This document shows, one piece after another, positions 6,762 through 45,592 of a stretch of DNA of 64,000 nt (the stretch's first letter is position 1; the number at the start of each line of letters is the position of its first letter). Location: positions 288,001 to 352,000 of IMG/VR virus record IMGVR_UViG_3300014208_000023; one strand, 5' to 3'. Made by a program: the position numbers and the translations under genes. The notes beneath the pieces were generated by a model. That model did not search any database. It saw nothing but the letters and a program-made list of their open reading frames with translations, and was not told where the DNA came from. The stretch is from a virus (taxonomy: Duplodnaviria > Caudoviricetes).

Positions 6762-6813
6762 ATCACTTGCCTTACCGACAAGATTGCAATAATGATTATC
6801 GTATCAAACGGAC

Positions 6814-7566
6814 TTATTCAAACGGAATAAAAAGTGATTTTCTTTTTTGAACGTAAGCGGCGCAATTCTCCCTAAATTTTGCAAGATTATTTTTGTGACA
6901 ATCAGTTTTAAACTCTCTATATGGGCCAACATCTAGCTCTCCCTGTCCAAAATGTATTCCCATTTCAGGAAGATAAGCCATTTCCCATCCTAATAATCTG
7001 GCCCTAAAGAAATAGTCAGCATCCTCTTCTCCATATTTTCCAAATTCTGTTATAAAATAACCTATTTGGTTATGAAGTTCTCTGCTAAAAACTGTGCAAG
7101 CAGTTCCCAGATTTCCTTGGGTTTTGTATTGAAACGTTTTGCCATGTCTGCTACGTATTGGATATTCTACGCCTTCCATATTCAATCCAACTGCAAACTT
7201 TGGATTAACTGAAAGAATATCTAATGATTTAGATAGCCACCCAGGAACGAATTCAATATCATTATCTAGCGTTGATAGGTATTCATCATTATATTTGGCA
7301 GATGCTTTTAGTCCTTGATTGCGACCAATAGCAATTCCCATATTTTCTTTGTTATAAACAAAGTCTTGACCAACACAATTCTTATTATTCCAAATATTTT
7401 CCTTTAGCCAAGGATCATTTTCTAGCCACTCCACCGTTCCATCAGTAGAGCCGTTATCAACTATAATGAGTCTGAATGGCGAATCAGTATTCTCAAAAAG
7501 GCTCTTGAGCATTCTTTTTGTTAAATCCAGCCTATTATAAGTAACAATCATTAATGATGTTGTCAT
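6814..7566 (-). CDS. Glycosyltransferase family 2
   Basis: IVTYNR, IVDNGSTDGT, LDNDIE, YGEEDADY; start at 7566 by ATGA overlap. Confidence 0.9.
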   Translation of the reverse strand: MTTSLMIVTYNRLDLTKRMLKSLFENTDSPFRLIIVDNGSTDGTVEWLENDPWLKENIWNNKNCVGQDFVYNKENMGIAIGRNQGLKASAKYNDEYLSTLDNDIEFVPGWLSKSLDILSVNPKFAVGLNMEGVEYPIRSRHGKTFQYKTQGNLGTACTVFSRELHNQIGYFITEFGKYGEEDADYFFRARLLGWEMAYLPEMGIHFGQGELDVGPYREFKTDCHKNNLAKFRENCAAYVQKRKSLFIPFE

Positions 7567-7934
7567 TTGCACATCTTCTTTATTGTCTTAAGGGTCTCGA
7601 TAAAACTTTCTGCCTGTAGTTTTTTAAGCTCAATTTCTTTGTCTTCTAAAGTCGAAATTCTAACCTTGAGATGGTGTTCGTCTTCGTTTATAATTTGGTC
7701 CGCGCTTAATTCTTCAATTTTAGCACACAATTTATTAAACGTAGTTGTTTTTATGAAATCAACTTTAGATTTGGCAAAATCTTTAATCTCTTTAAGATTA
7801 TTGCTCATAAGAATGAATGTAGCCATTCTTTCTACTTCTGGATATCCTACTTTATTAGGAACAAAAACTCTATATATCGGTTCGGCCACAAGCCCGCAAA
7901 TAAAAGCGGTTGCTATAAATATTAAATCAATCAT
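7563..7934 (-). CDS. Hypothetical protein with N-terminal hydrophobic segment
   Basis: LIFIATAFICGLVA then coiled-coil-like C-terminus. Confidence 0.6.
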   Translation of the reverse strand: MIDLIFIATAFICGLVAEPIYRVFVPNKVGYPEVERMATFILMSNNLKEIKDFAKSKVDFIKTTTFNKLCAKIEELSADQIINEDEHHLKVRISTLEDKEIELKKLQAESFIETLKTIKKMCK

Positions 7935-7954
7935 TGCGCACCATTTATAAAATG

Positions 7955-8875
7955 TTAGTTTGCTCTGTTTTCAACAAACCATTTGTAAGTTTTAGCTATT
8001 CCGTCTTCTAGAGACGTTTCTGCCTTAAGCCCAATTGATTTTAGTTTAGAAACGTCCAACAGTTTTCTTGGTGTTCCGTCAGGCTTGCTGCTATTATATG
8101 TGACTGGCCCTTCGTAACCGACAACTTTCTTTATCAAAATCGCCAAATCGTTAATGGTCATATCCTCACCGACACCAACATTAATGAGATCCGGTATGTC
8201 GTCCATAAACAATGTTTCTTTTACTATATTGGCCAGATCTTCACAATACATAAATTCTCTTCTAGCTTTTCCAGTTCCCCATAATTCTACGGACTCTGAA
8301 CCATTTACTTTAGCTTCGTGAATTTTTCGCAGTAAAGCCGGCAACACATGAGAATCTTCCAGATCAAAACTATCACCGGGCCCATACAAATTGGTGGGCA
8401 TTAATGAGTAGCCGGGAAAATTATATTGCCTACAATATGCTCTTATCATTTGCACTCCGGCAATTTTGGCAACAGCATAAGCGTCATTAGTAGATTCTAA
8501 TGGTCCGGTTAGAAGATATTCTTCTTTAATTGGTTGAGGGGCAAATTTTGGATAGATACACGACGATCCAAGAAAACAAAACTTTTTGCAACCATACTTT
8601 CTAGCTGCCTCTATTGTATTTACGGTTATTTGTAAATTCTGCCTAATAAAATCTCCCTGATAAGTAAAGTTTGCCATAATACCGCCAACCTTTGCGGCGG
8701 CCATTACAACATAATCAGGATGGTATTCTTTGAAAAAATCCTCTACTTGAGCTTGATTGGTTAAATCAAGCTCTGATCTAGATTTAGTAATGATATTATC
8801 ATAGTTAGATTTTTTAAGACTGCGCACTACGGCAGATCCTACCATCCCATTATGGCCCGCTACGTAAATGCTCAT
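7955..8875 (-). CDS. fcl: GDP-L-fucose synthase
   Basis: GHNGMVGS, AAAKVGGI, LGSSCIYP, YAVAK, PTNLYGP, SHVLP, REFMY, PDGTPRK. Confidence 0.95.
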   Translation of the reverse strand: MSIYVAGHNGMVGSAVVRSLKKSNYDNIITKSRSELDLTNQAQVEDFFKEYHPDYVVMAAAKVGGIMANFTYQGDFIRQNLQITVNTIEAARKYGCKKFCFLGSSCIYPKFAPQPIKEEYLLTGPLESTNDAYAVAKIAGVQMIRAYCRQYNFPGYSLMPTNLYGPGDSFDLEDSHVLPALLRKIHEAKVNGSESVELWGTGKARREFMYCEDLANIVKETLFMDDIPDLINVGVGEDMTINDLAILIKKVVGYEGPVTYNSSKPDGTPRKLLDVSKLKSIGLKAETSLEDGIAKTYKWFVENRAN

Positions 8876-9873
8876 TTTTTATTTAGTAAATAAAGTTCTT
8901 TTTCAGCCAATTCCATATCATATTGAATCATCTCATCTACCAGCATTTGGAATGAAAACTTTGGTTCCCAACCCAGCTCTTTTCGTATTTTGGAAGAATC
9001 TCCGCATAGAGCATCCACTTCGCTTGCTCTAAAGTATTTAGGATCTATTTCAACATAGTTTTTGTAATCAAGCCCCAGATGAGAAAATACCATCTCAACA
9101 AACTCTAGAACTGAATGCATCTCTCCGCTAGAGATAACGTAGTCTCCAGGATTTTCAGCAGTTATGATTTTAAACATTCCGGCAGCTACGTCCGATGCAT
9201 GAGACCAATCTCTTTTGGCGTCTAGATTTCCTAGATATAGTTTTTCTTGTAGCCCTAGTTTTATACGAGTTGCCGCTCTAGTTATTTTTCTGGTAACGAA
9301 GGTTTCTCCTCGTCTAGCGCCTTCGTGATTGAAACTGATGGCGTTACTGGCATGCATTCCATAAGCTTCTCTGTAGTTTATGGTGGCGTAGAATCCGGCC
9401 ACCTTTGCCACTCCATACGGAGACCTTGGGTGAAATGGCGTTGTTTCACTCTGTGGTGGATTTTCAGATCCAAACATTTCGCTGCTTGAGGCCGTAAGGA
9501 ATCTGGTTTTGGGACTACATTTCCTAACTGCCTCCAAAACTCTCATTACTCCGGTTCCTGTAACGTCCATGGTATAAACTGGAATATCAAAACTTACCTT
9601 AACGTGAGATTGCGCTCCCATGTTAAATAACAAATCTGGCTTAATATCTCCTATCCAGCTAGATAGTGATGCATAATCAGATAGGTCTCCATATGTTAAT
9701 TCTAATTGCGCATCCGAATGCGGATCTTGATAAAGATGGTCTATTCTCTCCGTATTTAGAGAGCTACTTCGACGCTTTAATCCATGAACCTTATAGCCTT
9801 CTTTTAGAAGAAGTTCGCATAGATATGATCCCGTCTGTCCAGTAACGCCAGTAATGCAAGCAGTTTTAGTCAT
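8872..9873 (-). CDS. gmd: GDP-mannose 4,6-dehydratase
   Basis: ITGVTGQTGSYL, AQSHVKVSF, ASSSEMFG, PRSPYGVAK, FNHE, ETFVTRKI, LGNLDAKRDW. Confidence 0.97.
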   Translation of the reverse strand: MTKTACITGVTGQTGSYLCELLLKEGYKVHGLKRRSSSLNTERIDHLYQDPHSDAQLELTYGDLSDYASLSSWIGDIKPDLLFNMGAQSHVKVSFDIPVYTMDVTGTGVMRVLEAVRKCSPKTRFLTASSSEMFGSENPPQSETTPFHPRSPYGVAKVAGFYATINYREAYGMHASNAISFNHEGARRGETFVTRKITRAATRIKLGLQEKLYLGNLDAKRDWSHASDVAAGMFKIITAENPGDYVISSGEMHSVLEFVEMVFSHLGLDYKNYVEIDPKYFRASEVDALCGDSSKIRKELGWEPKFSFQMLVDEMIQYDMELAEKELYLLNKK

Positions 9874-9928
9874 TTAAAGTCCTTAACAATTCTATATCAA
9901 ATGAACAAAAAGTTTTTCAACTAAAATT

Positions 9929-10183
9929 TCATTTTTTACCATATATTTTGGTCGATCCCTGCCCATATAGTTTTTGTGCCTCTCCGGTTTTAACCATATG
10001 ATTTATCTGCTCGTCTATCTGCTGAATAAGATCATTTCTCTGCTGGTTTGCTATGTTAGTAAGGCGAGTGGCATCTGCAATCTCCTTATCTGTAGCGGAT
10101 TTATTCCTCTTAATATCTTCGGCCATCCATATTCTTATATTGGTTACTGATAAGCTGTCAATTAGATTTCCAATAGTAGTCAT
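9929..10183 (-). CDS. DUF4254-like small helical protein
   Basis: TIGNLIDSLSVTNIRIWMAED...NQQRNDLIQQID pattern. Confidence 0.6.
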   Translation of the reverse strand: MTTIGNLIDSLSVTNIRIWMAEDIKRNKSATDKEIADATRLTNIANQQRNDLIQQIDEQINHMVKTGEAQKLYGQGSTKIYGKK

Positions 10184-10977
10184 TGTTTCCTAGTTTTGAA
10201 TTGTTCGATGTCTTCTTGCGTATCATTTAGAAGGTCCCAATACGTATATTCCCAATTTACGGATGGGGTAATCCATTTTGTATTAGTTGGCGGAGTGCTT
10301 GTATCTTCATTAACAAGATCGTGATATTCTAAACCGTTCATTTCGTATAAATCTTGCACGAAGTTTCTAACATTAAACGCCATTCCGGCCCCAACCATAC
10401 AATCTTCGATCTGCCCTATGCTTTTGCTTACGACAAATTTTGTATGAACCATATCTCGCTCGAAGTCCAAATTACCAACACTAATTTTTTCATTATTTAC
10501 GATCGATCTAAATATCTTTCCAAATAGGAAATACTTGCTTCTATACGTTGAATTGAAATAGAATGGGTGAATAAATATAACTTTTTTGTATAGATCGTTT
10601 AATTCACGAAGTTCTTTAATTTTATTTAAGAGAAGTAGTTTAGAAATCGCGTATTCATTTTTAAGATCGAAATTTGGTTCCGTATCTAAAGATATTACTC
10701 CCTCCCCAAACCCTCTCCACAATTCACAACTGGTGTAGCACACTATCTTTTTGGAGTTTTGCAGAAGGGCTTTGATTATCTTTAGTGTGTTCAGATAATT
10801 CGGAGTGATATAGTCAATGTTCTTTTCGTATATTCTCTGCTCGGCAAAAGTAATATATACAGAGTCCCATTGATTTTGTTTTAAATAATTGAAGTCAATA
10901 TTTCTGGAGGAAATTTTGACATAATCATCCGGAAAATACTGGGCTAACTGGGACGAACTTCCTATCACTAAATCCAC
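10180..10977 (-). CDS. Atypical NAD-dependent epimerase/dehydratase (SDR)
   Basis: Degenerate GSSSQLA glycine motif, YAISK (YxxxK), RDMVH. Confidence 0.7.
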   Translation of the reverse strand: MDLVIGSSSQLAQYFPDDYVKISSRNIDFNYLKQNQWDSVYITFAEQRIYEKNIDYITPNYLNTLKIIKALLQNSKKIVCYTSCELWRGFGEGVISLDTEPNFDLKNEYAISKLLLLNKIKELRELNDLYKKVIFIHPFYFNSTYRSKYFLFGKIFRSIVNNEKISVGNLDFERDMVHTKFVVSKSIGQIEDCMVGAGMAFNVRNFVQDLYEMNGLEYHDLVNEDTSTPPTNTKWITPSVNWEYTYWDLLNDTQEDIEQFKTRKQ

Positions 10978-12194
10978 TAGACACCTATAACTTCAAATTT
11001 CGGGCAGGGGACTATAAAACGACCACCTGCTAACAAATAATCCTGTTCTCTGCTGACAAACTCATTTATAAAATGCCAAGGCAATACTAGTAAATAATCT
11101 GGCTTTGCTCTACGCATCTCATCTTCAGAGTAAATCGGTATATTTGTTCCTACCGTTTTAAGCCCAAACTTATAGGGACTACGCTCGGCAATTCCATCGA
11201 TTAACGTGTGGTCAAGTCCAAAATATTGCAATAGGGTATTTCCTTTGGTGGAGGCGCCATAACCCCAAATAGTCTTGCCTTTGGCCTTCTCTTCTTTTAT
11301 AAAGAATACGGTTTTTTCTTTCAAAGATTCTATATCATTGTAAAACGATATCCAGGTTTCAGCTTGGTCTAATTTCAAAGTTTTTTCATATGCCAATAGA
11401 GAATCAACTCTCATATTGCAGATGTCTCTATATGGTTGAGAAGAAAATGTTTTTTCATCACCAGATTGTTTCATCGTATAAATTCTAAATGACCCGCCAT
11501 TAACATCATTAAGCTGGCAGTCCATAACTTTAAACCCATTTTTTTCTAGCAAAGCTTTTAAATTAAAAAGAGAATAGTAATAAATGTGTTCGTGACAGAT
11601 ATTATCAAAAGCCATTTGTTTAATCATTAATGGCGTATAGCTTAATTGAAGAACCCAAATGCCATTATCATCCAACACTTCTCCGATATCACGAATAAAT
11701 GAGTCTGGGTCTTCCAGGTCATAAAACATAGCTATAGAGGTTATTACTTTCGCTTTTAATCCGCCAAACTTACATTTTTTAAATGTATTAGCGCTAAAGT
11801 AATCTTGAATAATTAAATTGGAATGTTTTTGTGACTCGGCTTTATATGAATCATCTACCGGATCTATTCCAACTCTGATTAGGTCAGATGGTAACCACGA
11901 AAGAAGCGTTCCGTCATTACAAGCAATATCTATCCAAAGATCATTTTCTTTAAGTTTTTTTATTTTAAGAATGGAATCAACTATATCTTTTAATTCTTGT
12001 TTCATAGAAGAATTAATGCCGCTACGATACCAATATGTTCCATACATAGTATTTAACGGAGCTGATTTGGAAAGCTTAACGTTTCCATCATCAGTTAGCA
12101 ATAGTTTCATTTCAACCTTATCGCCCCGTGGTGGCTGGTTGTCTTTTATAAAGTCAGAAACATATAGGTCGCCTAAAGTAAAAAGCTCTTTCAT
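10977..12194 (-). CDS. NDP-sugar C-methyltransferase
   Basis: YWYRSG, DIACNDGTLL, SIAMFYDL, DNICHEH, GYGASTKGNTLL, LPWHF. Confidence 0.92.
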   Translation of the reverse strand: MKELFTLGDLYVSDFIKDNQPPRGDKVEMKLLLTDDGNVKLSKSAPLNTMYGTYWYRSGINSSMKQELKDIVDSILKIKKLKENDLWIDIACNDGTLLSWLPSDLIRVGIDPVDDSYKAESQKHSNLIIQDYFSANTFKKCKFGGLKAKVITSIAMFYDLEDPDSFIRDIGEVLDDNGIWVLQLSYTPLMIKQMAFDNICHEHIYYYSLFNLKALLEKNGFKVMDCQLNDVNGGSFRIYTMKQSGDEKTFSSQPYRDICNMRVDSLLAYEKTLKLDQAETWISFYNDIESLKEKTVFFIKEEKAKGKTIWGYGASTKGNTLLQYFGLDHTLIDGIAERSPYKFGLKTVGTNIPIYSEDEMRRAKPDYLLVLPWHFINEFVSREQDYLLAGGRFIVPCPKFEVIGV

Positions 12195-12206
12195 TATGAT
12201 TTTGAC

Positions 12207-13106
12207 CTAAAATTTGTTTAATGTTTCCGATATTGCCTGCGCGAATCCACTGTTCATTCTATCTAAAGACATATTATCGCAAATAAAGCTATTAACTGAA
12301 CCATTAGCAATAACCGAACTTTGAATCATAGTTCCGCACATTTCTACTCTGGGAACCGGCTTATTGCCCCAGCAACTTACTGCCTGGGTAATTCCGCTAC
12401 ATACTCCAATAAATAAATCGCAATAATTATGAACTAGCGCTAACTGTCTTACGGTAAAACTAGATCCGGAAACAACCCCAGGATCATCAACATATTTTGT
12501 ATGATCCATCATGCTGGCGAAAATAAAATTACATTTTCCAAATTTAGCCCTGCATAGAACCATCATATTTCTAATTACTTCTTCGCTCAAATTAAAATTG
12601 CCCGCCGATCTCAATTGAGACTCTATCATAACGGTTTTTGGGTGAGGTAGTTTAGAGCAAAACTCTCTTGCCATTTCACGCTCTTCATCGGAGAATTTTA
12701 GGTAAGGATGCCATTCCGCCGATGGATCTACGCCAAAAACCATTCTTGGTATATTTGAGTAATTGACATCATTAAGGGCATTATTTGGAAGCATTGCCCA
12801 TGGAGCTGGAAAATAACCATTATGCAGGTCTTTCATAGTATCATAATCCTGCCTTCTATTTAATAGAAGTTGCCCGTTTTTATCCATTAAATTTCTAAAG
12901 TCTTCTTGAGGCCAATCTCTTATTTCAGAGATGGCGTCATTATGCTTTAGCATATCCATGTACGTGGCTTTTTCTGGGGAAGTATTGAGAAACCAAACGA
13001 TTTCTTTACCAGGCCATAGGATATCTTTATATTTCAAAACGCAAGTGCATAAAGCTATGTCACCGTGCTGCCCATGAACAAAAATTCCAATCTTATTATT
13101 TACCAC
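12207..13106 (-). CDS. Putative GT-B glycosyltransferase (GT9-like)
   Basis: N-terminal HGDI after beta strand and C-terminal LFIGVCSG resemble GT9 motifs; cluster context. Confidence 0.5.
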   Translation of the reverse strand: MVNNKIGIFVHGQHGDIALCTCVLKYKDILWPGKEIVWFLNTSPEKATYMDMLKHNDAISEIRDWPQEDFRNLMDKNGQLLLNRRQDYDTMKDLHNGYFPAPWAMLPNNALNDVNYSNIPRMVFGVDPSAEWHPYLKFSDEEREMAREFCSKLPHPKTVMIESQLRSAGNFNLSEEVIRNMMVLCRAKFGKCNFIFASMMDHTKYVDDPGVVSGSSFTVRQLALVHNYCDLFIGVCSGITQAVSCWGNKPVPRVEMCGTMIQSSVIANGSVNSFICDNMSLDRMNSGFAQAISETLNKF

Positions 13107-13155
13107 ACTTGTCCTTATGTCAATACTTTGTTATTGGTATAGATAAGGGACGCAA

Positions 13156-13788
13156 ATGACATATTACTCTCAAGCATGGCAAGACGAATTCGTTATAAAT
13201 CTTTTGAACTTTAAAAAGAATGGGCACTTCATAGACATAGGAAGCACCGATGGTATGAATCAAAGTAATTCATATTTTCTTGAAAAAGAAATGGGGTGGA
13301 AAGGAACTTGCGTTGAGCTTGGAATCGGCTATACCGAGCACTATAAAAACAATAGAAGCTGCGTATTCTTAAATGAAGACGCTACCAAAATAGATTATAA
13401 ATCTTTATTTGATAAAAATCAATATCCATCACGAATAGATTATTTGTCTTTGGATATTGATGAGAGCAGTATGCTTGGTCTTGCAAAATTACCGTTTGAT
13501 GACTATAAGTTTAGCGTTATAACTATAGAGCATGACTCGTATAGATTTGGTGATATACTGAAAAATCAAGAGAGAGAATTTTTAAGGCATCACAATTATA
13601 CTCCATTATTTTTAGACGTTCTAGTTCCGCTTGGCTGTGGAATGGGACCAAATCTTTCATTTGAAGACTGGTGGGTAGATGCGTCTGTTTTTAATATGGA
13701 AAAATTAAACAAATTAAGTGCCACAAGAATGTATCCAGACGAAATAGTTGCTATGATAAAAAATAAGAAAGATATATACGCCATATAG
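13156..13788 (+). CDS. FkbM-like SAM methyltransferase
   Basis: YSQAWQD, FIDIGSTDG, IDYLSLDID, ITIEH. Confidence 0.8.
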   Translation: MTYYSQAWQDEFVINLLNFKKNGHFIDIGSTDGMNQSNSYFLEKEMGWKGTCVELGIGYTEHYKNNRSCVFLNEDATKIDYKSLFDKNQYPSRIDYLSLDIDESSMLGLAKLPFDDYKFSVITIEHDSYRFGDILKNQEREFLRHHNYTPLFLDVLVPLGCGMGPNLSFEDWWVDASVFNMEKLNKLSATRMYPDEIVAMIKNKKDIYAI

Positions 13789-13807
13789 TGAAAGGTTCGC
13801 CGAAAAT

Positions 13808-14623
13808 ATGAAAAAAATAATAAGCTACTCTTTGTATAATTCTATTCCAAAGAACACGATAAATGCCATCATCAACTGTATGTTGGTGCCTAAAATATAC
13901 CCAGGCTGGATAGCAAGATTTTATATAGATGATACTGTGCCAAAGCCTATTGTGGATATTTTACGAACTTTTGACTATGTTGAAATAGTTGAAATGCCAA
14001 GGGGAACTGGAAGTGAGCGTATGTGCTGGCGGTTCCTCCCAGCGGCAGACTATAATGCAATAATGATATCACGTGATTGCGATAGCTGGATTAGTTCAAG
14101 AGAAAAAGTTTGTGTCGATGCTTGGTTAGCTAGTGATAAAAACTTTAGTATTATTTATGATCACTGTTATCACACGGACTCAAAAATTAAAATAATGGGT
14201 GGCGTGTGGGGCTCAAGAAATGGTATCATTCCAAAGATGGCCGAAGAAATTGATAAGTTTGTAAATGCTGGCCAAACTTATGACCAGGGCCTATTATCAT
14301 CCGTAATCTATCCAAACATTACGCATACCGTCATGATTCATTATGGTGACCCTCAATATAATAATAAGGGGGAACGAATTCATCGAGGCAGCGAACTTGG
14401 AGGAGTTCCAATTCCGCCCTATGAAGAAAACGACGAGCCAATTCCTGGCCTTTCATTTAGACGCGTTAATAAGTTGAATGAATTTTTCTGCGCTCACTGC
14501 AAAAAACATCATGACGTTTTCATTGGTGGCATTATGGAACATATTCCAGAAGATGCTATGCAGGTTGTCAGAAATTACGCTAAAGAAAAGGGAATTTCAG
14601 TAGAAAATTGTCCTGGCTTCTAA
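13808..14623 (+). CDS. Putative glycosyltransferase-like protein
   Basis: IISYSLY, YPGW, WRFL, SRDCDS (DxD), MGGVWG, DQ motifs. Confidence 0.6.
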   Translation: MKKIISYSLYNSIPKNTINAIINCMLVPKIYPGWIARFYIDDTVPKPIVDILRTFDYVEIVEMPRGTGSERMCWRFLPAADYNAIMISRDCDSWISSREKVCVDAWLASDKNFSIIYDHCYHTDSKIKIMGGVWGSRNGIIPKMAEEIDKFVNAGQTYDQGLLSSVIYPNITHTVMIHYGDPQYNNKGERIHRGSELGGVPIPPYEENDEPIPGLSFRRVNKLNEFFCAHCKKHHDVFIGGIMEHIPEDAMQVVRNYAKEKGISVENCPGF

Positions 14624-15393
14624 TAAAAATACTTCAAAAACAAATCCATTCTTAATTTATGCCCCTCAGCAAATGAGGGGAAATAAGAATTCCATTGAGA
14701 ACCAGCCATATAATGGTAGAACCCATTAGCAACCCAGCCGGCACTTAATCCATATTTGCCACATATAAATAAATCATCTCTAAAATACTGTAAGAATGGG
14801 GTATCTTTGGCTGTGCTAATATAATTTAATATTTGGCTATTTTCCAGAAACTTAACTTTTTCTGGATTACTTTCAATAAAGTATCTGGTTTTCCCACCAC
14901 AATCTAGTCCTGGCTCTAATCCAAAATCTATATTTTTAGGATTTTGTAGAAGAGCCATATTAATGATCGTAAATGCTGGGTAGAAATAAATAATTCCTTT
15001 ACCATCCAATATTTTATATTCAGTTGTGCTTGCCGCAATATTGTTTCCTATAATATTTGAAACATTAATATCTTCTATTGGAAATACATCAGTATGAAGC
15101 AAAATAATAATTTCACAATTATTTTTAACGGCATAGTCTTGTACTGCCCAATTTAAAGTGGCAGCATATCCTTCTGAAGGATTTTGAATCTTATGAATAC
15201 TTTGCGGAACTCTCACGCAATTAATTTTATTATAGGAGGTCACCAGATTTATGGCCGCTTCCATCTCCGGATCCATTGCATCATTAAATAATACAAAATC
15301 AAAATCTTCTTTCATATACTTTTGAAATTGTCTATACATTATATCAATTGGAAACTTATCATTGACAGCAAAAGAGAAAACGGATATTTTCAT
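14620..15393 (-). CDS. Putative GT-A-like protein
   Basis: LLHTDVFP, LDCGG, YHYMAGSQW; glycan cluster context. Confidence 0.5.
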   Translation of the reverse strand: MKISVFSFAVNDKFPIDIMYRQFQKYMKEDFDFVLFNDAMDPEMEAAINLVTSYNKINCVRVPQSIHKIQNPSEGYAATLNWAVQDYAVKNNCEIIILLHTDVFPIEDINVSNIIGNNIAASTTEYKILDGKGIIYFYPAFTIINMALLQNPKNIDFGLEPGLDCGGKTRYFIESNPEKVKFLENSQILNYISTAKDTPFLQYFRDDLFICGKYGLSAGWVANGFYHYMAGSQWNSYFPSFAEGHKLRMDLFLKYFY

Positions 15394-16289
15394 ACAAGCT
15401 CCATAGAATTAATAGTTTCTTGAAGACCGTCCTTCAAAGAAGTAAATGATATATTTGGCATTATTGTTTTTAAGTATTGATTGCTTACGGTTTTCTTTAA
15501 ATTTCCATCAGGCTTACTGGTATCAAATTTAATTTGATGTTTGAAATTGACTATTTCGCCAATCGTAGTTGATAGGTCTGCAATACTAATTTCTTCGTCA
15601 CCGCAACAAATTACTGGTTTTGTGTCGAAATAAACATATACCAATTCTTTTATTATTGAGGCTAAATCTTTAGAATAAATAAACTGCCTTAATGGCTTGC
15701 CGGCACCACTCATTATGACATCAGAATTATTTTTCTCTGCATCTTTAAACTTATTAATTAAGTTTGGTATTAACCTACCAGAAGACATATTGTCATTTGG
15801 GCCATAGATATTTGACGGTATTATTCCAAAGTATTTTCTGCCATATTGAGTGTTATAATTTTGGCACTGTAGCTCAAGCATTCTTTTTGAAAACGCGTAT
15901 CCGGCAAAAGCTCCGGTTAAATTGCCTTCAAAAATCATAGACTCGTCCATAGGAAATTTTGATGGAACTTCTGGAAACATATTGACTGAAAGGCAGCACA
16001 TTACATTTTGAATATTAGATATATTGGCTGCCTCTAATACGTTTTCATTTATTCTAACATTTGTTGAGAACGAAGAAACTCTATCTATATTGTAGAAGCC
16101 AGGAACATATGATGCCAAATGAACAATATAATCTGGCCGCATCTCATTTATAAAACCAATAGTCTGCGATCTTTCCGTTAAGTCACAATCTTTTCTATTG
16201 ATGAATATCCAATTATTTTCACCTGAGCACATAGACTTTAGCGCGCTTCCTACGCAACCATCACTTCCAGTAACTAAAATACGTTTCAT
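15390..16289 (-). CDS. GDP-fucose synthase-like SDR paralogue (probable reductase)
   Basis: VTGSDGCVG, HLAS, YAFSK, PSNIYGP, LRQFIYSKDLA, KPDG; epimerase Cys and His positions read N and R. Confidence 0.85.
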   Translation of the reverse strand: MKRILVTGSDGCVGSALKSMCSGENNWIFINRKDCDLTERSQTIGFINEMRPDYIVHLASYVPGFYNIDRVSSFSTNVRINENVLEAANISNIQNVMCCLSVNMFPEVPSKFPMDESMIFEGNLTGAFAGYAFSKRMLELQCQNYNTQYGRKYFGIIPSNIYGPNDNMSSGRLIPNLINKFKDAEKNNSDVIMSGAGKPLRQFIYSKDLASIIKELVYVYFDTKPVICCGDEEISIADLSTTIGEIVNFKHQIKFDTSKPDGNLKKTVSNQYLKTIMPNISFTSLKDGLQETINSMELV

Positions 16290-17488
16290 GGCTTGTAGCT
16301 CAACAATATATCAACCAGATCATCCACTAGATCGGCCGACATTAAATTGCTTGGAAGACCTATAAAACACCCTCTATAGTGGCATTTCTCGGCCCCTTTA
16401 AAATCAGCCGGATTTAATTCAGGATAAAGATCCTTGATGACTGGCTGCCTAACCATATTGCCGGTTATTATTGGCCTATTTTCGACGCCTTTGCTTGAAA
16501 GATAATCTAAATAATCTGATAGCTTAATGTTTTCATCCAAAAACATAGTTACTCCAAACCACGCAATATCGCCATTATCTATTTCTTTTGGAAATGAAAT
16601 AAAGCTACCTCTTGGATCTGCTTCTATTTTTGACTTTATATTGCTATAGTTTATTTTCCTATTTTCGTTTTTAGATTTTAATTTATATAGCTGATGCACG
16701 CCCATCGCCGCCTGTATCTCCATGGGCCTGACGTTATATCCTAGATTTACGAAAGTAAATCTTGGGTCTATGTCCGGAAACTGTTCCTGAATTTCATTCT
16801 TATTCTTTAGGCTCCTAGACCAACCATGGGCACGCAGACACTTTATGAGCTCATAATCCTCATCGTCATCACAAACTACCATTCCGCCTTCCATAGTAGT
16901 TATGTGATGTGAATAATAAAATGAATATGTGGCAAAGGTTCCAAAAGTCCCCAGGTATTTGCCATCATATTTGGATCCTAGGCTTTCACACGTATCCTCT
17001 ATTAAAATAAGATTGTGGCGCTTAACTATATCCATTAATTTTCTCATGTCGGTGGAGTTTCCTAGGACATGAACCAACATAATGGCTTTTGTTTTTTCAG
17101 TTATTTTCTTTTCTAGATCCTCTAAATCTATATTTAGAGTTTCAGGATCTACATCGACAAACACTGGAACTAGATTGCACTGAACAATTGGAAAAATACT
17201 TGTAGACCAACACAAGGCCGGAACAATAACTTCATCGCCCGGCACAAGCTTATTGGCTCTTTTGTAGTTAGTTAAAGCGGCTACGGCTAACAAATTGGCG
17301 GACGAACCAGAATTAACCATAACTGCATGTTTAGCACCAACATATTCTGCGAACATATTTTCGAATTGGCTTACCTGCTCACCCATAGTGAAGTTTCCGG
17401 TAAGCAATACTTTAATCATATTTAAAATATCATCAGTATCGTGAGCGTTCTGTCCCAATGGGAACTTCATAATTAACGGTGATTTCAT
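16286..17488 (-). CDS. colD: PLP/PMP-dependent GDP-4-keto-6-deoxymannose 3-dehydratase, ColD-like (DegT/DnrJ family)
   Basis: NSGSSANL, WSTS, EDTCES, SFYYSHHITTMEGG (His in place of Schiff-base Lys), RAHGWSR, GYNVRP; no E1-type Cys cluster. Confidence 0.8.
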   Translation of the reverse strand: MKSPLIMKFPLGQNAHDTDDILNMIKVLLTGNFTMGEQVSQFENMFAEYVGAKHAVMVNSGSSANLLAVAALTNYKRANKLVPGDEVIVPALCWSTSIFPIVQCNLVPVFVDVDPETLNIDLEDLEKKITEKTKAIMLVHVLGNSTDMRKLMDIVKRHNLILIEDTCESLGSKYDGKYLGTFGTFATYSFYYSHHITTMEGGMVVCDDDEDYELIKCLRAHGWSRSLKNKNEIQEQFPDIDPRFTFVNLGYNVRPMEIQAAMGVHQLYKLKSKNENRKINYSNIKSKIEADPRGSFISFPKEIDNGDIAWFGVTMFLDENIKLSDYLDYLSSKGVENRPIITGNMVRQPVIKDLYPELNPADFKGAEKCHYRGCFIGLPSNLMSADLVDDLVDILLSYKP

Positions 17489-18552
17489 AGTTGGCTCTTA
17501 AGGCTGGTAAGAATTTCTTGCCAGTTATTATAAACTGAAGATCTTCTCAAGATATTGTGTTGGGACATATTATAGCTAATTTCGCTAGTATTTACGGTAT
17601 TTAATAAGTGAGATAGGTGAGATGGTGAATCAAAATATTGAATATATTTCATATTTCCTTCGTCGTAAAAATCACAGGTATCTATCCATTTATTTAAAAC
17701 CTCTGGGTTTCGAAGACTATTTGGATTATTTATATCTTCTGGCTCTTGCGCCTTACCTACTCTATAAAAAGTAAGGTCAGCAAATGCTTTGTTTTGATGA
17801 AACAATTCTTTTAAATAGGATTTAGATGGGAAAAATAATGGAACGTTAGCCGTATATTGCTCGAACGTAGACATTGTTCCATTGTGATATGGAATATGAA
17901 TTATTCCTTTATAACTATATAGATCTGCCCAGCTATATTTCCAGTTGCCGTTTCTTATTGCGCCAAGACTGACACACGAATTTCCAGGAACAGATATCTC
18001 TGATCGATCATGTATAACGAACTGATTTTTTGTTCCAGTATATTTGGCATTTGTATATTCGCATAAGTTTGGAATATGCATGCCAGTAATTCCAGTCATA
18101 TATTTAGTGTAATATTGGTCTCCTTTATTATTGCAAACATAATAAAGTTTTCCAGATGCAGCTCTTTCTTTTAGAAAGATATTTAATCTATCTCTAATTG
18201 CTAGATTGAAAGTATTGGGATGGTCATATCTAATACAATTAACAACTATAATTGGTTTATTAAATTTTTCATATAGAAGAGCGAATTCAGTAGGATAGCA
18301 CGCAATGAAGCCATCATATTTGCTTAATTCTTCTTTATTTGCCTCATAGAACTTATCACAAACTTCTTGCGTGCATACTCCAGAACAAGTTAATTGCGTT
18401 CCATCACTTAATTTGATATTTGGTTTAGGCTTATTTAAAACCCAGTGATGACCGGATAGCGACCAATCATCAACTTCATGGCCCAAATTTTTGAAAATAT
18501 GAGCCACATCTGCTATGACTGAAACGTGCTGGTCTATGTTGAAAAATTTCAT
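17485..18552 (-). CDS. Putative glycosyltransferase-like protein
   Basis: MSTFEQYTANVPLFFP resembles GT-B nucleotide-binding segment; cluster context. Confidence 0.5.
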   Translation of the reverse strand: MKFFNIDQHVSVIADVAHIFKNLGHEVDDWSLSGHHWVLNKPKPNIKLSDGTQLTCSGVCTQEVCDKFYEANKEELSKYDGFIACYPTEFALLYEKFNKPIIVVNCIRYDHPNTFNLAIRDRLNIFLKERAASGKLYYVCNNKGDQYYTKYMTGITGMHIPNLCEYTNAKYTGTKNQFVIHDRSEISVPGNSCVSLGAIRNGNWKYSWADLYSYKGIIHIPYHNGTMSTFEQYTANVPLFFPSKSYLKELFHQNKAFADLTFYRVGKAQEPEDINNPNSLRNPEVLNKWIDTCDFYDEGNMKYIQYFDSPSHLSHLLNTVNTSEISYNMSQHNILRRSSVYNNWQEILTSLKSQL

Positions 18553-18567
18553 ATATCCTAAATATAA

Positions 18568-19413
18568 TTATACTGCTTCAGAAGAGGTGTGAAAAAGCCG
18601 AATACCTATTTGCGTTTTGTTTTCTAGAAAATACATCTGCACATCAAACCCATTACTAAATGGCTTAATAGTATTATACAAAGTATATGGCGAAAACCAA
18701 TACTTATGATCTGGATGAACCATTTCTAACGAAAACTCATCTGAACAAAAAATTTCCGCAACTGCCATACACGGAACAGTGAATAAATATTCTTTAGCTT
18801 TTACTGAAAAAATATCTTTTAAAAATAAATCTACATTTGGAACGTGCTCCATTACTTCAGGAACTATGACAATATCATATTCTTTATCAACATCCTTATA
18901 TGACGTAAAGTATGTTCCTGGGCAGGCCTGTTTTAGCTTATTTGTGGTTTCAACATCAATATCCAGACCGTCTATTCGCGTATTTATTCTTTTTTTAAAT
19001 TCAGAATAAGCTATTTCTGCAAGAGAAGATGCAAGCTCTGCCTTGGCGAGCGCTTCATTTCCAACGGCCTGTTCTGGCGTTACCTTCGCTCTTTCTTTAG
19101 TTCTTTCTATTTTTGCCTTATCTACTTTCTCTTTAAGAACTATTTCTTCTTCGGTCTTCATGTCCTTAAGTTTAGATAAGAATATATGCAAATTAGATTC
19201 CACATTAAAAACCATAGTGTCAGCGCATCCTACATGTAGGACTGTTTTGCCCTGACATAAATTTCCAATAAATTCAAATCTAGAATGTCTGATATTTTTC
19301 AGATGCATTTTTTGTATATAAAAATTATCAGTAGCCTCGTATGTTTTACGGGCAATTTTAACTGGTGCTTCTGGTGCTTCGATAACTTCTAGCTGCATAT
19401 TTTCTCCGGTCAT
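18568..19413 (-). CDS. Class I SAM methyltransferase with helical insertion
   Basis: VLHVGCAD, GLDID, EVMEHV, HPDH; ~60-aa charged insert. Confidence 0.75.
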   Translation of the reverse strand: MTGENMQLEVIEAPEAPVKIARKTYEATDNFYIQKMHLKNIRHSRFEFIGNLCQGKTVLHVGCADTMVFNVESNLHIFLSKLKDMKTEEEIVLKEKVDKAKIERTKERAKVTPEQAVGNEALAKAELASSLAEIAYSEFKKRINTRIDGLDIDVETTNKLKQACPGTYFTSYKDVDKEYDIVIVPEVMEHVPNVDLFLKDIFSVKAKEYLFTVPCMAVAEIFCSDEFSLEMVHPDHKYWFSPYTLYNTIKPFSNGFDVQMYFLENKTQIGIRLFHTSSEAV

Positions 19414-20129
19414 ATTTTAATCCATTCTGGTGGTAAAAGGTCTTTTGTGTTATGTTGTAGTGCCGGCCCAAACCAGGTACTTGGTGCCAGAACTTTTTTA
19501 TTTTCGTTTTTATTTAGCCAAGCTCCCCACCAGCTAAAGCTACTGTTGCATATAATATTGCTTTCGCATGTTTTAGCCATCAAAGCTAAATCTATTGCCG
19601 GCCCATTTCCCTCAGAATATTCGTATTGATTTCCTACGAAATTTCTTTTGGCCCAGTCCATATCATCAGATAGAATCAAAAATTTCTTGCACCCACTCAT
19701 TTCCATTGCTTTTGAATAATAATCCATACTCATAAGTGGATGACAATTTTGAAAATTAAGGTAATCACCTCTTCTTATATGAAGAGAACACAATCCCTCT
19801 TCTCTTTCAAACTTATAAATTGGAGTTAATGCTTTAGCTATTTCTTCTTTATTATTTTCAAAGTATTTCCAGGATTGGAAATATCCTATTAAATCCACCG
19901 AATTAGACGCTGGGATTTCATCATAATGAAATGCTTTTTCCTGATAAGTTTTAGATACGGCTATATTTGATGAAAAACAATTATGCAAATTAAAGTTAGG
20001 TTCATATTGCCAAGGTGGAAACTGATAATCCGTATTGTTTTTAATAGCAGTAGATATAGTGGTAGCTATCTGGAATAAACAATTCCCTAACCTACCCATC
20101 TTTCCTAGCTGTGAAAACGTAACTGTCAT
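19410..20129 (-). CDS. Alpha-1,2-fucosyltransferase, GT11 family
   Basis: GRLGN, GYFQS, HIRRGDY, SDD, NSSFSWWGAWL. Confidence 0.93.
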   Translation of the reverse strand: MTVTFSQLGKMGRLGNCLFQIATTISTAIKNNTDYQFPPWQYEPNFNLHNCFSSNIAVSKTYQEKAFHYDEIPASNSVDLIGYFQSWKYFENNKEEIAKALTPIYKFEREEGLCSLHIRRGDYLNFQNCHPLMSMDYYSKAMEMSGCKKFLILSDDMDWAKRNFVGNQYEYSEGNGPAIDLALMAKTCESNIICNSSFSWWGAWLNKNENKKVLAPSTWFGPALQHNTKDLLPPEWIKI

Positions 20130-22459
20130 TGCCTTATTTCGTGGTGGTTTTTATCAAGTAGAAGTATTTTTGGCGCAAATGTTTTTGGAAGCCACTTCTT
20201 CTTATAAGACTCAATATTTGATTGAGGGTAGTGATAGCTTGGAGTCAAAATTACTGTTGGCTCGTTGTCTAGAAAATACCTATTTATTGCGGTCTCGTCG
20301 TGCCAAACTGGAATCACGTTGTTTGCCACATCTCTATCTATAACATCCTTACACCATTTAGCAAGCTCCATATACTTGTCTCTTCTACCTCCACTAAATC
20401 CTCCGCCAAAATAGTTCTTATATTTTTTTGGATACGAATCAGAAATGAATAAACGAGAGGCTGGATTTGTTTCAAATGGACCCTTACCATTAGTAAATCC
20501 ACAATGCTGAACGCCAACCAAATCGCCTATAATCTCTGGCCCAATATTATCTACGAATAAACAATCAACATCTACATAATATAGATAATCTTCATTATTC
20601 AGAATATGCTCATTGTTTGCGAAATGGGCAAATCGATCCATACTGGCAAATGGAAACGGTTTATGCTGAATTGGAATATGAATTATTCTACGATCCGATT
20701 TTGGAATATGAACTGTTTTTCGCTCAGCATCTAATGACGTTATGTCGCTAAAAACATAATATGTTACATCAAAATTTTCATTTAGAAAATGTTTGTCGGC
20801 AGAATCTATTATTCCTTGCAAAAATCTATCATATTTGCCCGTGGCTATAAGCATTAGTCCAACCGAAGTTTTTTTACTTGGCGGAGATACTGGAGAATAC
20901 CGAGGCATATTTCTAATGTGCCTATCAAGATCTTGTTGCATCTTAACATTTACTTTATGATCATTAATTGGGTTTTCCATATTATAGACATAAAGAATAT
21001 CTGAAATGTATTTTTGATGGTGTTTTGCCATTTCCATCATAGGAAACATTATGGCGAAATCCCATGTCATCTTGAAAAATTCACCGTTAATCGATAAATC
21101 TTCTTTTCTTATTATTTTGAATAGCCAAGCATAGAACGTTCTTAAGTGGGAGGCTGCCCAAGGCGTTTTTCTAAACGCTAGATTTTCTATAACTTCTGGT
21201 CGATAGGCGCCGGCAATACCTGAGCCGCCATTTGGGTGGTTTGTATATTGTCCGTAAGACATCCAAATATCACTTTCATTGTAGTGACGCTTAAGTCTAT
21301 TCAAAACCTCTCCATCGGGAAGCCAGTCATCACCATCAAGCGTTAGGACAATTTCATCATCAGCACAACTATGAATCATATTATATAGATTTGCCAACGC
21401 TCCTTGTCTGGAGTTATTCTTTATTACGGTGCATTTATGTTGGTGCGGTGAGTTTTTCACCGCAGCATTTACCAAATTGAATGTTTGATCTGGAGAGCAA
21501 TCATCTACAAATATGACTCTGAACTTATCATAATTTTGATTTAGTGCCGACAATATATTCTTTACGCACCATCTTTCATTATTGTAGCTTGGAATAACAA
21601 TAACGAACCTTTTTTCTTTAGAATCCAATGACCACGCTCGCGGAACATTAACTAGGGCCGTTTTCATTGGCAAACTAATTGATGTTGGATCATTAAGTGT
21701 TAGTGGCTTGCCAATAGTTAAGCCTGGCCTTCTTGAATTAATAAAGCGCTCACTATACTGAACATCTCCGCTTCTACGTGCGGCATCTGACTCCAGCTTA
21801 AGAATATGGTGCCTATCTCTGCGTATAAACCAAAGCCTTCTATTACCAAATTTTCTTCCGGTATCATTAACCGACCAGTCATATCTAAATTGGCCGTGAT
21901 TTAATTTAGTCTCATCAACCCTTTTGAATTTTGCATTCAATGATGAAAGCTTGTTTTGCAGATTTTTTTCTGAAACAATGCTTCCTTCTCCACTGAAGGA
22001 ATGATCGTCTATATCTTTAGATTCATAAATAGGAACTAATATATTTGGATTAGAAGAATCTAATATTTCAGTTTCTAGAACTATTCTTTCAGAAACTGAA
22101 AGCAACGATTCTATATGTTTTTCATATGTCTTAAGGTGACATAGAAGATCTATGCTAATGGCCATATCAAAAGAAAAAGGCTCGAATGGAAAATCTTTTT
22201 CCAAATCGAGCTGCATTGTTTTTATATATGGGAACTTTTTTCTAATAAGATTTAGGTTAGATTCTCTTGCATCTACGCAAGTCATCTCCGCCCCTAACCT
22301 TGCAAATATATTGGCAAATTCTCCGTTACCGGCACCCAAATCAAGGATCTTTTTTCCTTTGAAAAAGGTCTGTCCAAAATAATCAATTATAGTTTTGCTT
22401 AACTTGAAATTTCTCTCTTTTTGCTCGGCTGGAGTCATAACTCTAAATATAACTGCCAT
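20126..22459 (-). CDS. Multidomain methyltransferase + GT2 + GT6 fusion protein
   Basis: LDLGAGNG (aa ~1-215); IPSYN, DDCS, LDGDD (GT2); IATGKY, YYVDVD, GGFSGG, WHDETAIN (GT6, ~20126-20870). Confidence 0.88.
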   Translation of the reverse strand: MAVIFRVMTPAEQKERNFKLSKTIIDYFGQTFFKGKKILDLGAGNGEFANIFARLGAEMTCVDARESNLNLIRKKFPYIKTMQLDLEKDFPFEPFSFDMAISIDLLCHLKTYEKHIESLLSVSERIVLETEILDSSNPNILVPIYESKDIDDHSFSGEGSIVSEKNLQNKLSSLNAKFKRVDETKLNHGQFRYDWSVNDTGRKFGNRRLWFIRRDRHHILKLESDAARRSGDVQYSERFINSRRPGLTIGKPLTLNDPTSISLPMKTALVNVPRAWSLDSKEKRFVIVIPSYNNERWCVKNILSALNQNYDKFRVIFVDDCSPDQTFNLVNAAVKNSPHQHKCTVIKNNSRQGALANLYNMIHSCADDEIVLTLDGDDWLPDGEVLNRLKRHYNESDIWMSYGQYTNHPNGGSGIAGAYRPEVIENLAFRKTPWAASHLRTFYAWLFKIIRKEDLSINGEFFKMTWDFAIMFPMMEMAKHHQKYISDILYVYNMENPINDHKVNVKMQQDLDRHIRNMPRYSPVSPPSKKTSVGLMLIATGKYDRFLQGIIDSADKHFLNENFDVTYYVFSDITSLDAERKTVHIPKSDRRIIHIPIQHKPFPFASMDRFAHFANNEHILNNEDYLYYVDVDCLFVDNIGPEIIGDLVGVQHCGFTNGKGPFETNPASRLFISDSYPKKYKNYFGGGFSGGRRDKYMELAKWCKDVIDRDVANNVIPVWHDETAINRYFLDNEPTVILTPSYHYPQSNIESYKKKWLPKTFAPKILLLDKNHHEIRQ

Positions 22460-45591: not shown

Positions 45592-45592
45592 A

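Follow-up and report, generated by a model that had tools for sequence, protein, structure and literature searches.

A seventeen-gene glycan island in a 428-kb groundwater phage: assembly without export genes and the candidate acceptors of its product

What does a tailed phage make with a contiguous block of genes for the synthesis and transfer of unusual sugars, and on what does it place the product? The question is raised by positions 6814–22459 of a 64,000-nucleotide stretch of DNA, here called the window, which represents bases 288001–352000 of a 428,320-bp IMG/VR virus record with direct terminal repeats (IMGVR_UViG_3300014208_000023) obtained from a groundwater metagenome. An earlier note on this window had described the block as an autonomous system that builds a complex, methylated deoxy-sugar glycan on virion proteins or DNA. 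The present analysis supports an island that is self-contained for nucleotide-sugar tailoring and glycan assembly, in a genome from which export machinery is absent throughout. The phage-borne and self-contained character of the system therefore stood; a virion target is plausible only, and DNA as the target was found to be unsupported.

Sugar supply, chain assembly and the absence of export

The seventeen contiguous genes counted earlier were all recovered as open reading frames (ORFs), which fill the interval 6814–22459, mostly with overlapping stop and start codons. The nucleotide-sugar enzymes that had been recognised among them (Gmd, Fcl, a second Fcl-like protein, a ColD-like protein, a C-methyltransferase and a short-chain dehydrogenase/reductase, SDR) were borne out by matches in Pfam, NCBIfam and the PDB. 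The GDP-mannose 4,6-dehydratase Gmd (8872–9873, minus strand; TIGR01472, 451 bits, above the cut-off of 415) would, by homology, convert host GDP-mannose to GDP-4-keto-6-deoxymannose, from which the GDP-L-fucose synthase Fcl (7955–8875, minus strand; NF047922, 1.5e-130, 435 bits with a cut-off of 500; Epimerase, 4e-65) would form GDP-L-fucose. The DegT-family protein encoded at 16286–17488 (minus strand) is, as judged from its sequence, ColD, the GDP-4-keto-6-deoxymannose 3-dehydratase, because E. coli ColD (2gms, the best PDB match, 9e-85) is far ahead of the perosamine synthases (7e-48, at a far lower score) and because the histidine that replaces the aminotransferase lysine is kept: an SHH motif aligns with SHH of ColD, at the position where the structure of the H188N mutant (3b8x) shows SNH. 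The stop of this gene is overlapped by the start of the gene for the second Fcl paralogue (15390–16289, minus strand; NF047922, 167 bits, far below the cut-off; Epimerase, 5e-39), an arrangement of translational coupling. This paralogue is 31% identical to the Fcl of the island and, from its paralogy and position, is a candidate GDP-L-colitose synthase (ColC), which together with ColD would lead from GDP-4-keto-6-deoxymannose to GDP-L-colitose.

A further branch is suggested by the NDP-hexose C-methyltransferase of the TylC3 type (10977–12194, minus strand; Methyltransf_14, 1.2e-45; Methyltransf_23, 4e-14), orthologues of which are 61–84% identical in eight related loci. The adjacent gene encodes an atypical SDR of 265 aa (10180–10977, minus strand; weak matches to GDP_Man_Dehyd, 9e-5, and gmd, 5e-7; orthologues in loci L020 and L021), a candidate 4-ketoreductase for the C-methylated sugar, and the two enzymes would yield a C-methyl 6-deoxyhexose. 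The gene of a small DUF4254 protein (9929–10183, minus strand; PF14063, 1e-10) always adjoins the C-methyltransferase gene, with synteny in L012, L014, L020, L021 and L022. A possible outlying sugar-supply gene, 6 kb upstream of the island, is that of an RmlA-like sugar-1-phosphate nucleotidylyltransferase, the N-terminal part of which lies in the window (3–620, minus strand; NTP_transferase, 1.7e-32; rmlA_long, 1.4e-45, below the cut-off). The full gene (genome 287886–288620; 244 aa) extends past the start of the window, and just beyond it is a 288-aa gene with a weak resemblance to RmlD (rmlD, 4e-15).

All island proteins except that of one small ORF are free of predicted transmembrane (TM) segments. 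The exception (7563–7934, minus strand; 123 aa) has one N-terminal hydrophobic segment (residues 1–23), no match in Pfam or PHROGs and no homologue in the related loci. A Kyte-Doolittle scan of all 1260 ORFs of at least 60 aa in the complete 428-kb genome gave none with more than four predicted TM segments, which excludes polytopic proteins of the WecA, Wzx, Wzy and WaaL types, since Wzx, Wzy and WaaL have 10–12 such segments each. PF02397 (Bac_transf), the family of the initiating enzymes WbaP and PglC, is absent from the whole genome, whereas 9 of 14 control genomes were positive. The best match to ABC_tran in the genome (19.7 bits, cut-off 25) lies in an unrelated 467-aa ORF, and no permease with six TM segments was seen. 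The lack of Wzx, Wzy, an ABC exporter and a ligase, which the earlier note had reported for the island, thus holds for the entire genome, and no flippase or polymerase gene lies nearby. The same tendency was seen in related loci: an ORF with at least six TM segments or a phosphoglycosyltransferase (PGT) was found in none of 22 phage loci (421 kb) as against 14 of 67 bacterial loci (within 6 kb; one-sided p = 0.013). Compared with a Wzx/Wzy-type locus, sugar genes and several glycosyltransferases (GTs) in one block are present, and the initiating, flippase, polymerase and ligase genes are absent. A multi-domain GT with a methyltransferase domain, such as the fusion protein described below, resembles the polymerase and terminator enzymes of the ABC-transporter-dependent O-polysaccharide pathway.

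About eight GT or GT-like domains had been counted in the island. Four of them, namely two GT2, one GT11 and one GT6, are firm Pfam domains, and the remaining four are only probable, as judged from fold, language-model leads and fusion partners. The soluble GT2 of 252 aa (6814–7572, minus strand; PF00535, 3e-19), which may be called the anchor of the locus, is the candidate initiating transferase. At the opposite end of the island lies the gene of a 777-aa fusion protein (20126–22459, minus strand), in which Pfam domains of a methyltransferase (residues ~20–125), a GT2 (~285–435) and a GT6 (~530–755) follow one another. The GT6 domain, of a family of retaining alpha-1,3-Gal/GalNAc/Glc transferases, scores 118.6 bits with PF03414 (cut-off 25) and has Bacteroides ovatus BoGT6a as its best PDB match (4ayj, 4e-36); it carries the motif DVD where BoGT6a has NAN, keeps WHDE with its catalytic glutamate, and shows no variation at D630, D632 and E722 across 26 homologues. 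In nearly all related loci the next gene is that of the predicted GT11 alpha-1,2-fucosyl (or colitosyl) transferase (19410–20129, minus strand; PF01531, 5e-20, 72.3 bits with a cut-off of 23.9), a short protein of 239 aa whose match covers positions 107–296 of the 298 in the profile.

The less certain transferases are encoded between these ends. The protein at 12207–13106 (minus strand) gave no sequence-level match in Pfam or in a PDB profile search; its AlphaFold2 model (predicted local distance difference test, pLDDT, 64) has a GT-B fold, for which the top Foldseek matches were the GT9 protein 3tov, WaaF (1psw) and WaaC (E ~1e-5, TM-score ~0.45) along with GT9 clusters of AFDB. With a moderate model and low TM-scores it may be described as GT-like, resembling GT9 heptosyltransferases. 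A conserved protein of 271 aa (13808–14623, plus strand), with orthologues 59–68% identical in related loci and no match in Pfam or the PDB, is possibly a GT-A, GT8-like transferase, as suggested by a language-model (Atlas) lead to viral GT8 and Nucleotid_trans clusters (0.92–0.93). The Atlas lead of the conserved 257-aa protein (14620–15393, minus strand), which is likewise unmatched in Pfam and the PDB, points to viral clusters named GT2, including one at 0.97 with PF00535 in 20% of its members, and this protein is possibly GT2-like. The protein of 355 aa (17485–18552, minus strand) belongs to a large uncharacterised family of 1232 clusters at 50% identity, for which there is no Pfam model; members elsewhere are fused to GT47/RXYLT1-like, GT2, GT25 and methyltransferase domains, its Atlas neighbours are automatically named glycosyltransferase, and it is a candidate GT by association. 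Its AlphaFold2 model (pLDDT 44) was too poor for a structure search. A remote homologue of this protein, P0160, is fused to a zf-MYND finger, a domain typical of eukaryotes and their viruses, and from that distribution the family may occur in giant viruses too. PDB profile searches of the four unassigned ORFs returned chance-level matches only, and NCBIfam and PHROGs added nothing for them.

Of the three other methyltransferase domains noted earlier, the FkbM-family enzyme (13156–13788, plus strand; PF05050, 2e-5, 25.3 bits, above the cut-off of 22.7) and the domain of the fusion protein stand. The third, at 18568–19413 (minus strand), is a probable S-adenosylmethionine-dependent methyltransferase with weak matches (Methyltransf_23, 0.0045; phrog_22502 methyltransferase, 6e-5; UbiG, 5e-5).

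A variable locus in a clade of large phages

The island lies on the same contig as the Caudoviricetes hallmark genes. The portal protein (genome 227626–229500; phrog_16240, 2e-50) is 31% identical to that of phage G, the nearest isolate, and the HK97-type major capsid protein (MCP; genome 183893–184900) shares 53% identity with the protein annotated as major head protein in Bacillus phage G. A head-maturation-protease domain (genome 218434–221799), a collagen-like tail fibre of 1005 aa (genome 200616–203633) and a large DNA polymerase (genome 256597–260130) are also present, and CheckV rated the record 100% complete. The phage hallmarks on the contig which the earlier note had wished to see confirmed were thus found, and with them membership of the Nucleocytoviricota is very unlikely. 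Family searches of the genome with PF04451 (the double-jelly-roll capsid) and Gp23 gave no match, nor did they in the control genomes; Terminase_6N was likewise unmatched in the genome. To our knowledge there is no isolate of the clade to which this phage belongs. The portal homologues of two IMG/VR relatives, G004 (locus L047) and G008 (L046), match in two pieces ~1.2 kb apart within single ORFs of 1005 and 1073 aa, which suggests an insertion in the portal gene, perhaps an intein or an extra domain.

Comparison with related loci indicates that the island is one version of a clade-wide variable locus, in which the conserved transferases are constant and the sugar-pathway genes between them are swapped. 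A search for related loci with the single fusion protein as query found nothing, and an alignment was used instead. The fusion protein has more than 120 cluster representatives at 41–72% identity, many of them on contigs of 200–479 kb. The 252-aa GT2 has homologues in 480 clusters at E<=1e-20 and is found in 18 of the 22 related loci. Across the clade no other part of the island is so well conserved (53–77% identity among the best 120 of the 480 clusters, on contigs of up to 479 kb). The clade portal, at 53–58% identity, was found on five IMG/VR contigs that have the GT core. Three relatives illustrate the exchange. L012 (NCBI, 467 kb) has nearly the same gene set in a rearranged order. L010 (JGI, 422 kb) has a fusion protein 72% identical to that of the island, and the ColD and ColC genes are swapped for those of a PRK-aldolase fusion, an NTP transferase and a TylF methyltransferase. 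In G001 (406 kb, 95% complete), whose portal is 69% identical, the locus lies at the corresponding position, behind the SET and Thg1 genes, and keeps the 252-aa GT2 at 56% identity; it encodes a DegT aminotransferase, a PglD-like (PglD_N) acetyltransferase and a methyltransferase-GT1 fusion, and neither GT6 nor GT11. The colitose pathway, absent from both L010 and G001, is accordingly a swappable cassette.

Homologues of the GT2-GT6 part of the fusion and of GT11 were also found, as separate genes and at 37–53% identity, in 67 bacterial loci of GTDB, mostly in metagenome-assembled genomes (MAGs) of Chlamydiota, Dependentiae and Pseudomonadota, with several on megabase contigs. In the one annotated example, a contig from Chlamydiae, the neighbours of the GT6, GT2 and GT11 genes encode a GT4, SDRs and an initiating enzyme of the Bac_transf family. 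For the 252-aa GT2, by contrast, the best relatives in bacteria are only 24–36% identical. From these identities, and from the contexts of the loci, the elongating enzymes look as if they were borrowed from lipid-linked bacterial pathways, whereas the conserved candidate initiator looks like a phage-specific lineage. Two GTDB entries with GT2-GT6 genes, L078 (425,589 bp, a Verrucomicrobiae MAG) and L087 (445,804 bp, an 'uncultured bacterium' MAG), have sizes like those of the clade and may be phage genomes binned as bacteria.

Candidate acceptors of the glycan

The reading we prefer, although tentatively, is that the island is a cytoplasmic, membrane-free glycan factory whose product is placed on the phage's own fibres. 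Virions assemble in the cytoplasm, so a flippase, polymerase, ligase or exporter would not be needed. The phage-specific 252-aa GT2 would start the chain on a phage-encoded acceptor, most likely a virion fibre, such as the 914-aa fibre-like protein encoded next to the island or the collagen-like fibre. The GT2, GT11 and GT6 enzymes would then build a Fuc-alpha1,2-Gal unit with an alpha1,3-linked hexose, a branch resembling those of blood groups A and B, if the acceptor logic of the bacterial enzymes applies (PMC4202792). Up to four further GT-like proteins may lengthen the chain and the three methyltransferases may decorate or cap it. With the two conserved transferase genes fixed and the cassette between them exchanged, each phage would acquire a 'serotype' of its own. 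Fibres are favoured as the target because there are no membrane steps, because the candidate initiator is conserved and phage-specific, because three glycan clusters of the genome each stand beside a gene for a fibrous protein, and because giant viruses offer a precedent. Advanced with more reserve is the wider proposition, that a widespread clade of 400–480-kb phages distantly related to phage G can, without help from the host, O-glycosylate the fibres of its virions, the glycans being long, methylated and built of deoxy-sugars. This would include the A/B-like branch, initiation by the GT2 on a fibre and a virion 'serotype' changed by cassette swapping, as a counterpart in bacterial viruses of fibril glycosylation in mimiviruses and capsid glycosylation in chloroviruses.

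The first of the three clusters is the island itself, with the divergent gene of the 914-aa protein (22505–25249, plus strand) as its neighbour. No match to this protein was found in Pfam, PHROGs, the PDB or isolates. Two further proteins encoded by the phage begin with a segment 42% identical to its N-terminal 57–120 aa, its residues 541–669 are 40% identical to a protein of the structural region, and in related phages of 424–431 kb, proteins of 637–662 aa share just its N-terminal ~75 aa (71–80% identity). Because a constant anchor with a variable body is the pattern of receptor-binding fibres, the protein is a candidate receptor-binding fibre and a possible glycan acceptor. Three GT2 domains were detected in the genome outside the island. 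The second cluster (genome 191377–207288) flanks the collagen-like fibre gene on both sides. On one side it encodes a 4,6-dehydratase-like SDR, a C-methyltransferase (Methyltransf_13 and Methyltransf_14), a cupin, a GT1-like protein, two methyltransferases and a 911-aa GT2-GT4 fusion, and on the other a polysaccharide pyruvyl transferase. The fibre consists largely of G-P-T, G-S-T and G-A-T triplets, and in BclA, a protein of the Bacillus exosporium, the O-glycosylated motif is a triplet of this type, which is a lead only. In the third cluster (genome 125703–129629), just before large structural genes, an SDR epimerase/dehydratase gene and two GT2 genes surround the gene of a 340-aa coiled-coil protein. 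The genome also has the gene of a tubulin/FtsZ-family protein of the PhuZ/TubZ type (genome 124351–125718; Tubulin, 1.8e-19) with a TubZ-like C-terminal domain.

Several observations weigh against the fibres. The acceptor is a candidate only. Among the relatives, a fibre gene next to the island is confined to the closest ones, L010 and L011; its neighbours in L012 are small ORFs and Thg1. The island lies among genes for replication and RNA repair (Thg1, UDG, AAA ATPases, helicases), outside the head-tail module. Six relatives lack both the GT2-GT4 fusion of the second cluster and the C-terminus of the collagen-like fibre; this cluster and its fibre are therefore accessory and tell little about the island. 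The MCP has no Ser/Thr-rich C-terminal tail, and no homology to mycobacteriophage GTs (the enzymes of Che8, Corndog and Myrna) was found: when 50,697 phage records were searched by tblastn with the 252-aa GT2 and the fusion protein, no Mycobacterium phage was among the matches. Furthermore, the bacterial homologues of GT6, GT2 and GT11, with Bac_transf beside them in the Chlamydiae example, imply lipid-linked assembly, and the citable characterised bacterial GT6 and GT11 enzymes all act on O-antigen units (PMC4202792).

These last points lead to remodelling of the host surface, a strong rival that is only somewhat less likely than the fibres. Here the phage enzymes would build or extend a glycan on host intermediates linked to undecaprenyl pyrophosphate, and the PGT, the flippase or ABC transporter and the ligase of the host would export it. 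An O-antigen, capsule or wall glycan altered in this way would block superinfection or prevent adsorption of the progeny to infected cells and debris. That the enzymes could act on such intermediates follows from the occurrence of the homologous triad in a bacterial polysaccharide cluster with a PGT. WbnI of E. coli O86 and BoGT6a use Fuc-alpha2-Gal acceptors of surface glycans (PMC4202792), and polymorphic clusters of jumbo cyanophages have been read as a means of forestalling rival phages through a modified O antigen or capsule (Iyer et al. 2021, PMC7824862). The position of the island among non-structural genes and a cassette swapping like that of serotype loci also agree with a surface product. 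However, the 428-kb genome, which in other respects duplicates many functions of the host, has no membrane or initiating component, and a new repeat unit for which the phage brings no Wzy could at best be exported singly. The most conserved gene, that of the 252-aa GT2, has no close bacterial orthologue, which is unexpected for a shared host lipid-linked acceptor. The core transferases are, moreover, kept across phages from groundwater, freshwater, wastewater and soil, whose hosts and acceptors probably differ.

A soluble or secreted glycoconjugate, or a glycosylated host protein, is an improbable product. Iyer et al. (2021, PMC7824862) proposed that another class of cyanophage clusters makes sugar-derived secondary metabolites, and for the acceptor of the island there are candidates only, but the island has no aglycone-forming genes (polyketide synthase, non-ribosomal peptide synthetase, halogenase or carbamoyltransferase), an exporter is absent, and eight transferases suggest an oligosaccharide on a macromolecule.

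Still less probable, and highly so, is hypermodification of DNA, in which a sugar on a hydroxymethylated base would be extended to an oligosaccharide as a protection from restriction. Hypermodification of DNA with diverse glycans by phage GTs is known, so far as the work is summarised in PMC12619734 (Pyle 2024, cited there), and the genome has a thymidylate-synthase-family gene (genome 93715–94563) as well as a UDG-superfamily (uracil-DNA glycosylase) gene ~2.4 kb from the island. The former, however, has the score of a normal thymidylate synthase (TIGR03284, 178 bits; cut-off 108), and it keeps the asparagine of uracil-specific enzymes instead of the aspartate of dCMP hydroxymethylases and therefore is not one of these, although from its sequence it might be a dUMP hydroxymethylase; glycosylation of DNA is thus unlikely. 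GT6 and GT11 enzymes act on sugar acceptors, and there is no recognised DNA glycosyltransferase among the annotated genes. Known DNA glycans consist of one to three sugars, which eight transferases, three deoxy-sugar pathways and three O-methylations far exceed.

An origin of the island from cellular DNA wrongly assembled into a phage contig can practically be dismissed: although its GT genes have bacterial homologues and the related contig G007 is labelled 'provirus' in IMG/VR, window positions 5500–25400 are crossed in each of two runs by a single contig of 122,925 nt with zero differences and even depth, the gene order is shared with 420–480-kb contigs from JGI, NCBI and ENA, the GT core occurs together with the clade portal on the five IMG/VR contigs, and the GC content (39.7% in the genome) shows no discontinuity at the island. 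Short 'joints' in the comparison with the contigs of the read runs were matches of 21–25 nt to unrelated contigs and were discounted.

If the glycan is placed on the virion, tailed phages would join the giant viruses in having a complete glycosylation pathway independent of the host. Virion 'serotypes' would then be a new axis of phage diversity, with consequences for adsorption, the avoidance of decoys, the way in which host defences or grazers recognise the particles, and the immunogenicity of phages used in therapy. If it is instead placed on the host envelope, the island would be a very large serotype-conversion system of a lytic phage that borrows all export steps from the host, and would serve well as a model of how huge phages exclude superinfection. 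Whichever target applies, the soluble enzymes are of practical interest, namely the microbial GT6-GT2-methyltransferase fusion of the DXD type, the compact GT11, the colitose pathway, the sugar C-methyltransferase with its DUF4254 partner, and the 355-aa family, which has more than 1200 clusters without a Pfam model and is repeatedly fused to GTs.

In the surroundings of the island, the window encodes a SET-domain protein (617–1090), a Thg1-like tRNA-His guanylyltransferase (2430–3209) and the UDG-superfamily protein (3690–4379), followed by two paralogous AAA ATPases (4372–6734); the SET and Thg1 genes are syntenic in G001 and L012 too. Downstream of the island, positions 42645–50927 encode an RlaP-type nucleotidyltransferase of RNA repair, an adenylosuccinate synthetase (PurA) and a VapE-like primase/helicase. 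The C-terminal ~130 aa of a 768-aa protein (window 28526–30832) recur at 29–42% identity in five other proteins of the genome, at locations that include genome 333945–335891, 377336–382395 and 391664–393859. ARAGORN found 16 tRNA-like genes in the genome, with the anticodon not assignable in two of them. Shine-Dalgarno use is weak (29% of crude gene starts), and scans for sigma-70 promoters (71 sites, 70.3 expected from shuffled sequence) and terminators (14, 12.6 expected) agreed with chance. TATAAATA is not enriched upstream of genes. The sole enriched upstream word, 10–13 fold, is TGATATAT(A), which usually ends 7–10 nt before the start codon, for example at window 3218 and 6751 (compare GATATATG-N7-ATG in another genome), and which may be a translation or transcription signal of the clade. 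The sequence was found in none of the RNA runs, and megablast of the island and of window 40–60 kb against the 50,697 phage records gave no match.

Comparison with known systems

The earlier description of the island as an undescribed system was too strong, since clusters of jumbo phages (PMC7824862), the glycosylation systems of chloroviruses and mimiviruses (PMC9614988) and mycobacteriophage glycosylation, as far as it is reported in PMC12619734 (Freeman 2023, cited there), precede it. What we did not find in the literature searched is this lineage, the architecture of fixed ends and a swapped cassette, the methyltransferase-GT2-GT6 fusion with a GT6 of the DXD type, the colitose and C-methyl branches, and several glycan clusters in one genome.

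Polymorphic clusters of nucleotide-sugar and GT genes were described in jumbo phages by Iyer, Anantharaman, Krishnan, Burroughs and Aravind (2021, PMC7824862). Like the island, those of the jumbo cyanophages combine nucleotide-sugar enzymes, nucleotidyltransferases, methyltransferases and several paralogous GTs of many families; they are sporadic and polymorphic between related phages, and their function is by inference only. The published reading is a change of the host surface, which is ranked second for the island. GT6 genes occur in P-SSM2 and many Synechococcus phages. Their products are 26–32% identical to the island GT6, which differs in being fused to a GT2 and a methyltransferase. The lineage of the island is also a different one, with a phage-G-like MCP, genomes of 400–480 kb and a groundwater source, and the island has in addition the colitose and C-methyl-sugar branches and a conserved anchor GT2 that defines a fixed locus.

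Mycobacteriophage glycosylation systems consist of few GTs and draw on host nucleotide sugars, whereas the island has 17 genes and three sugar pathways. Glycans on both capsid and tail of mycobacteriophages have been reported (Freeman 2023, cited in PMC12619734); as presented in that source, soluble phage-encoded GTs act on virion proteins in the cytoplasm with no export machinery, as is proposed here. The MCP of the island phage, with no Ser/Thr-rich tail, differs from the mycobacteriophage type.

The bacterial counterparts resemble parts of the island. The combination of GT11, GT6 and GDP-fucose, with the predicted formation of Fuc-alpha1,2-Gal and then of an alpha1,3-hexose linkage, is shared with the WbnI (GT6) and GT11 enzymes of E. 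coli O86 and with BoGT6a (PMC4202792). Bacterial GT6 enzymes have the motif NXN and are mostly metal-independent, whereas the phage domain has DVD like the vertebrate enzymes, and the bacterial GT6 and GT11 act on lipid-linked units and are encoded in clusters with Wzx and Wzy, neither of which the phage has. The GDP-L-colitose pathway of E. coli O55 and Yersinia (Gmd, ColD and ColC) is matched by a Gmd above the equivalog cut-off, by the ColD at 9e-85 and by the coupled Fcl-like gene, although ColC is only a candidate in the island, from paralogy and position, and the pathway there is swappable.

The closest likeness to the reading preferred here is found in the giant viruses, in which autonomous glycosylation is established for chloroviruses and mimiviruses (PMC9614988). 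They infect eukaryotes and have double-jelly-roll capsids, whereas the carrier of the island is a tailed phage, and their target is proven, whereas that of the island is a proposal. In PBCV-1, soluble GTs, a Gmd of its own and the three-domain enzyme A064R, all expressed early, glycosylate the capsid (PMC9614988); A064R has the order GT-GT-methyltransferase as against methyltransferase-GT2-GT6 in the island fusion, with no homology shown between them. The Megavirinae have clade-specific glycan clusters for their fibrils (PMC10117803). With both the island shares a virus-encoded Gmd and GDP-fucose synthesis, soluble cytoplasmic GTs and multi-domain transferases (PMC9614988, PMC7826918, PMC10117803), as well as methylated deoxy-sugars, glycan gene sets that are specific to a clade, and a pathway that needs neither the endoplasmic reticulum and Golgi of a host nor an export step.

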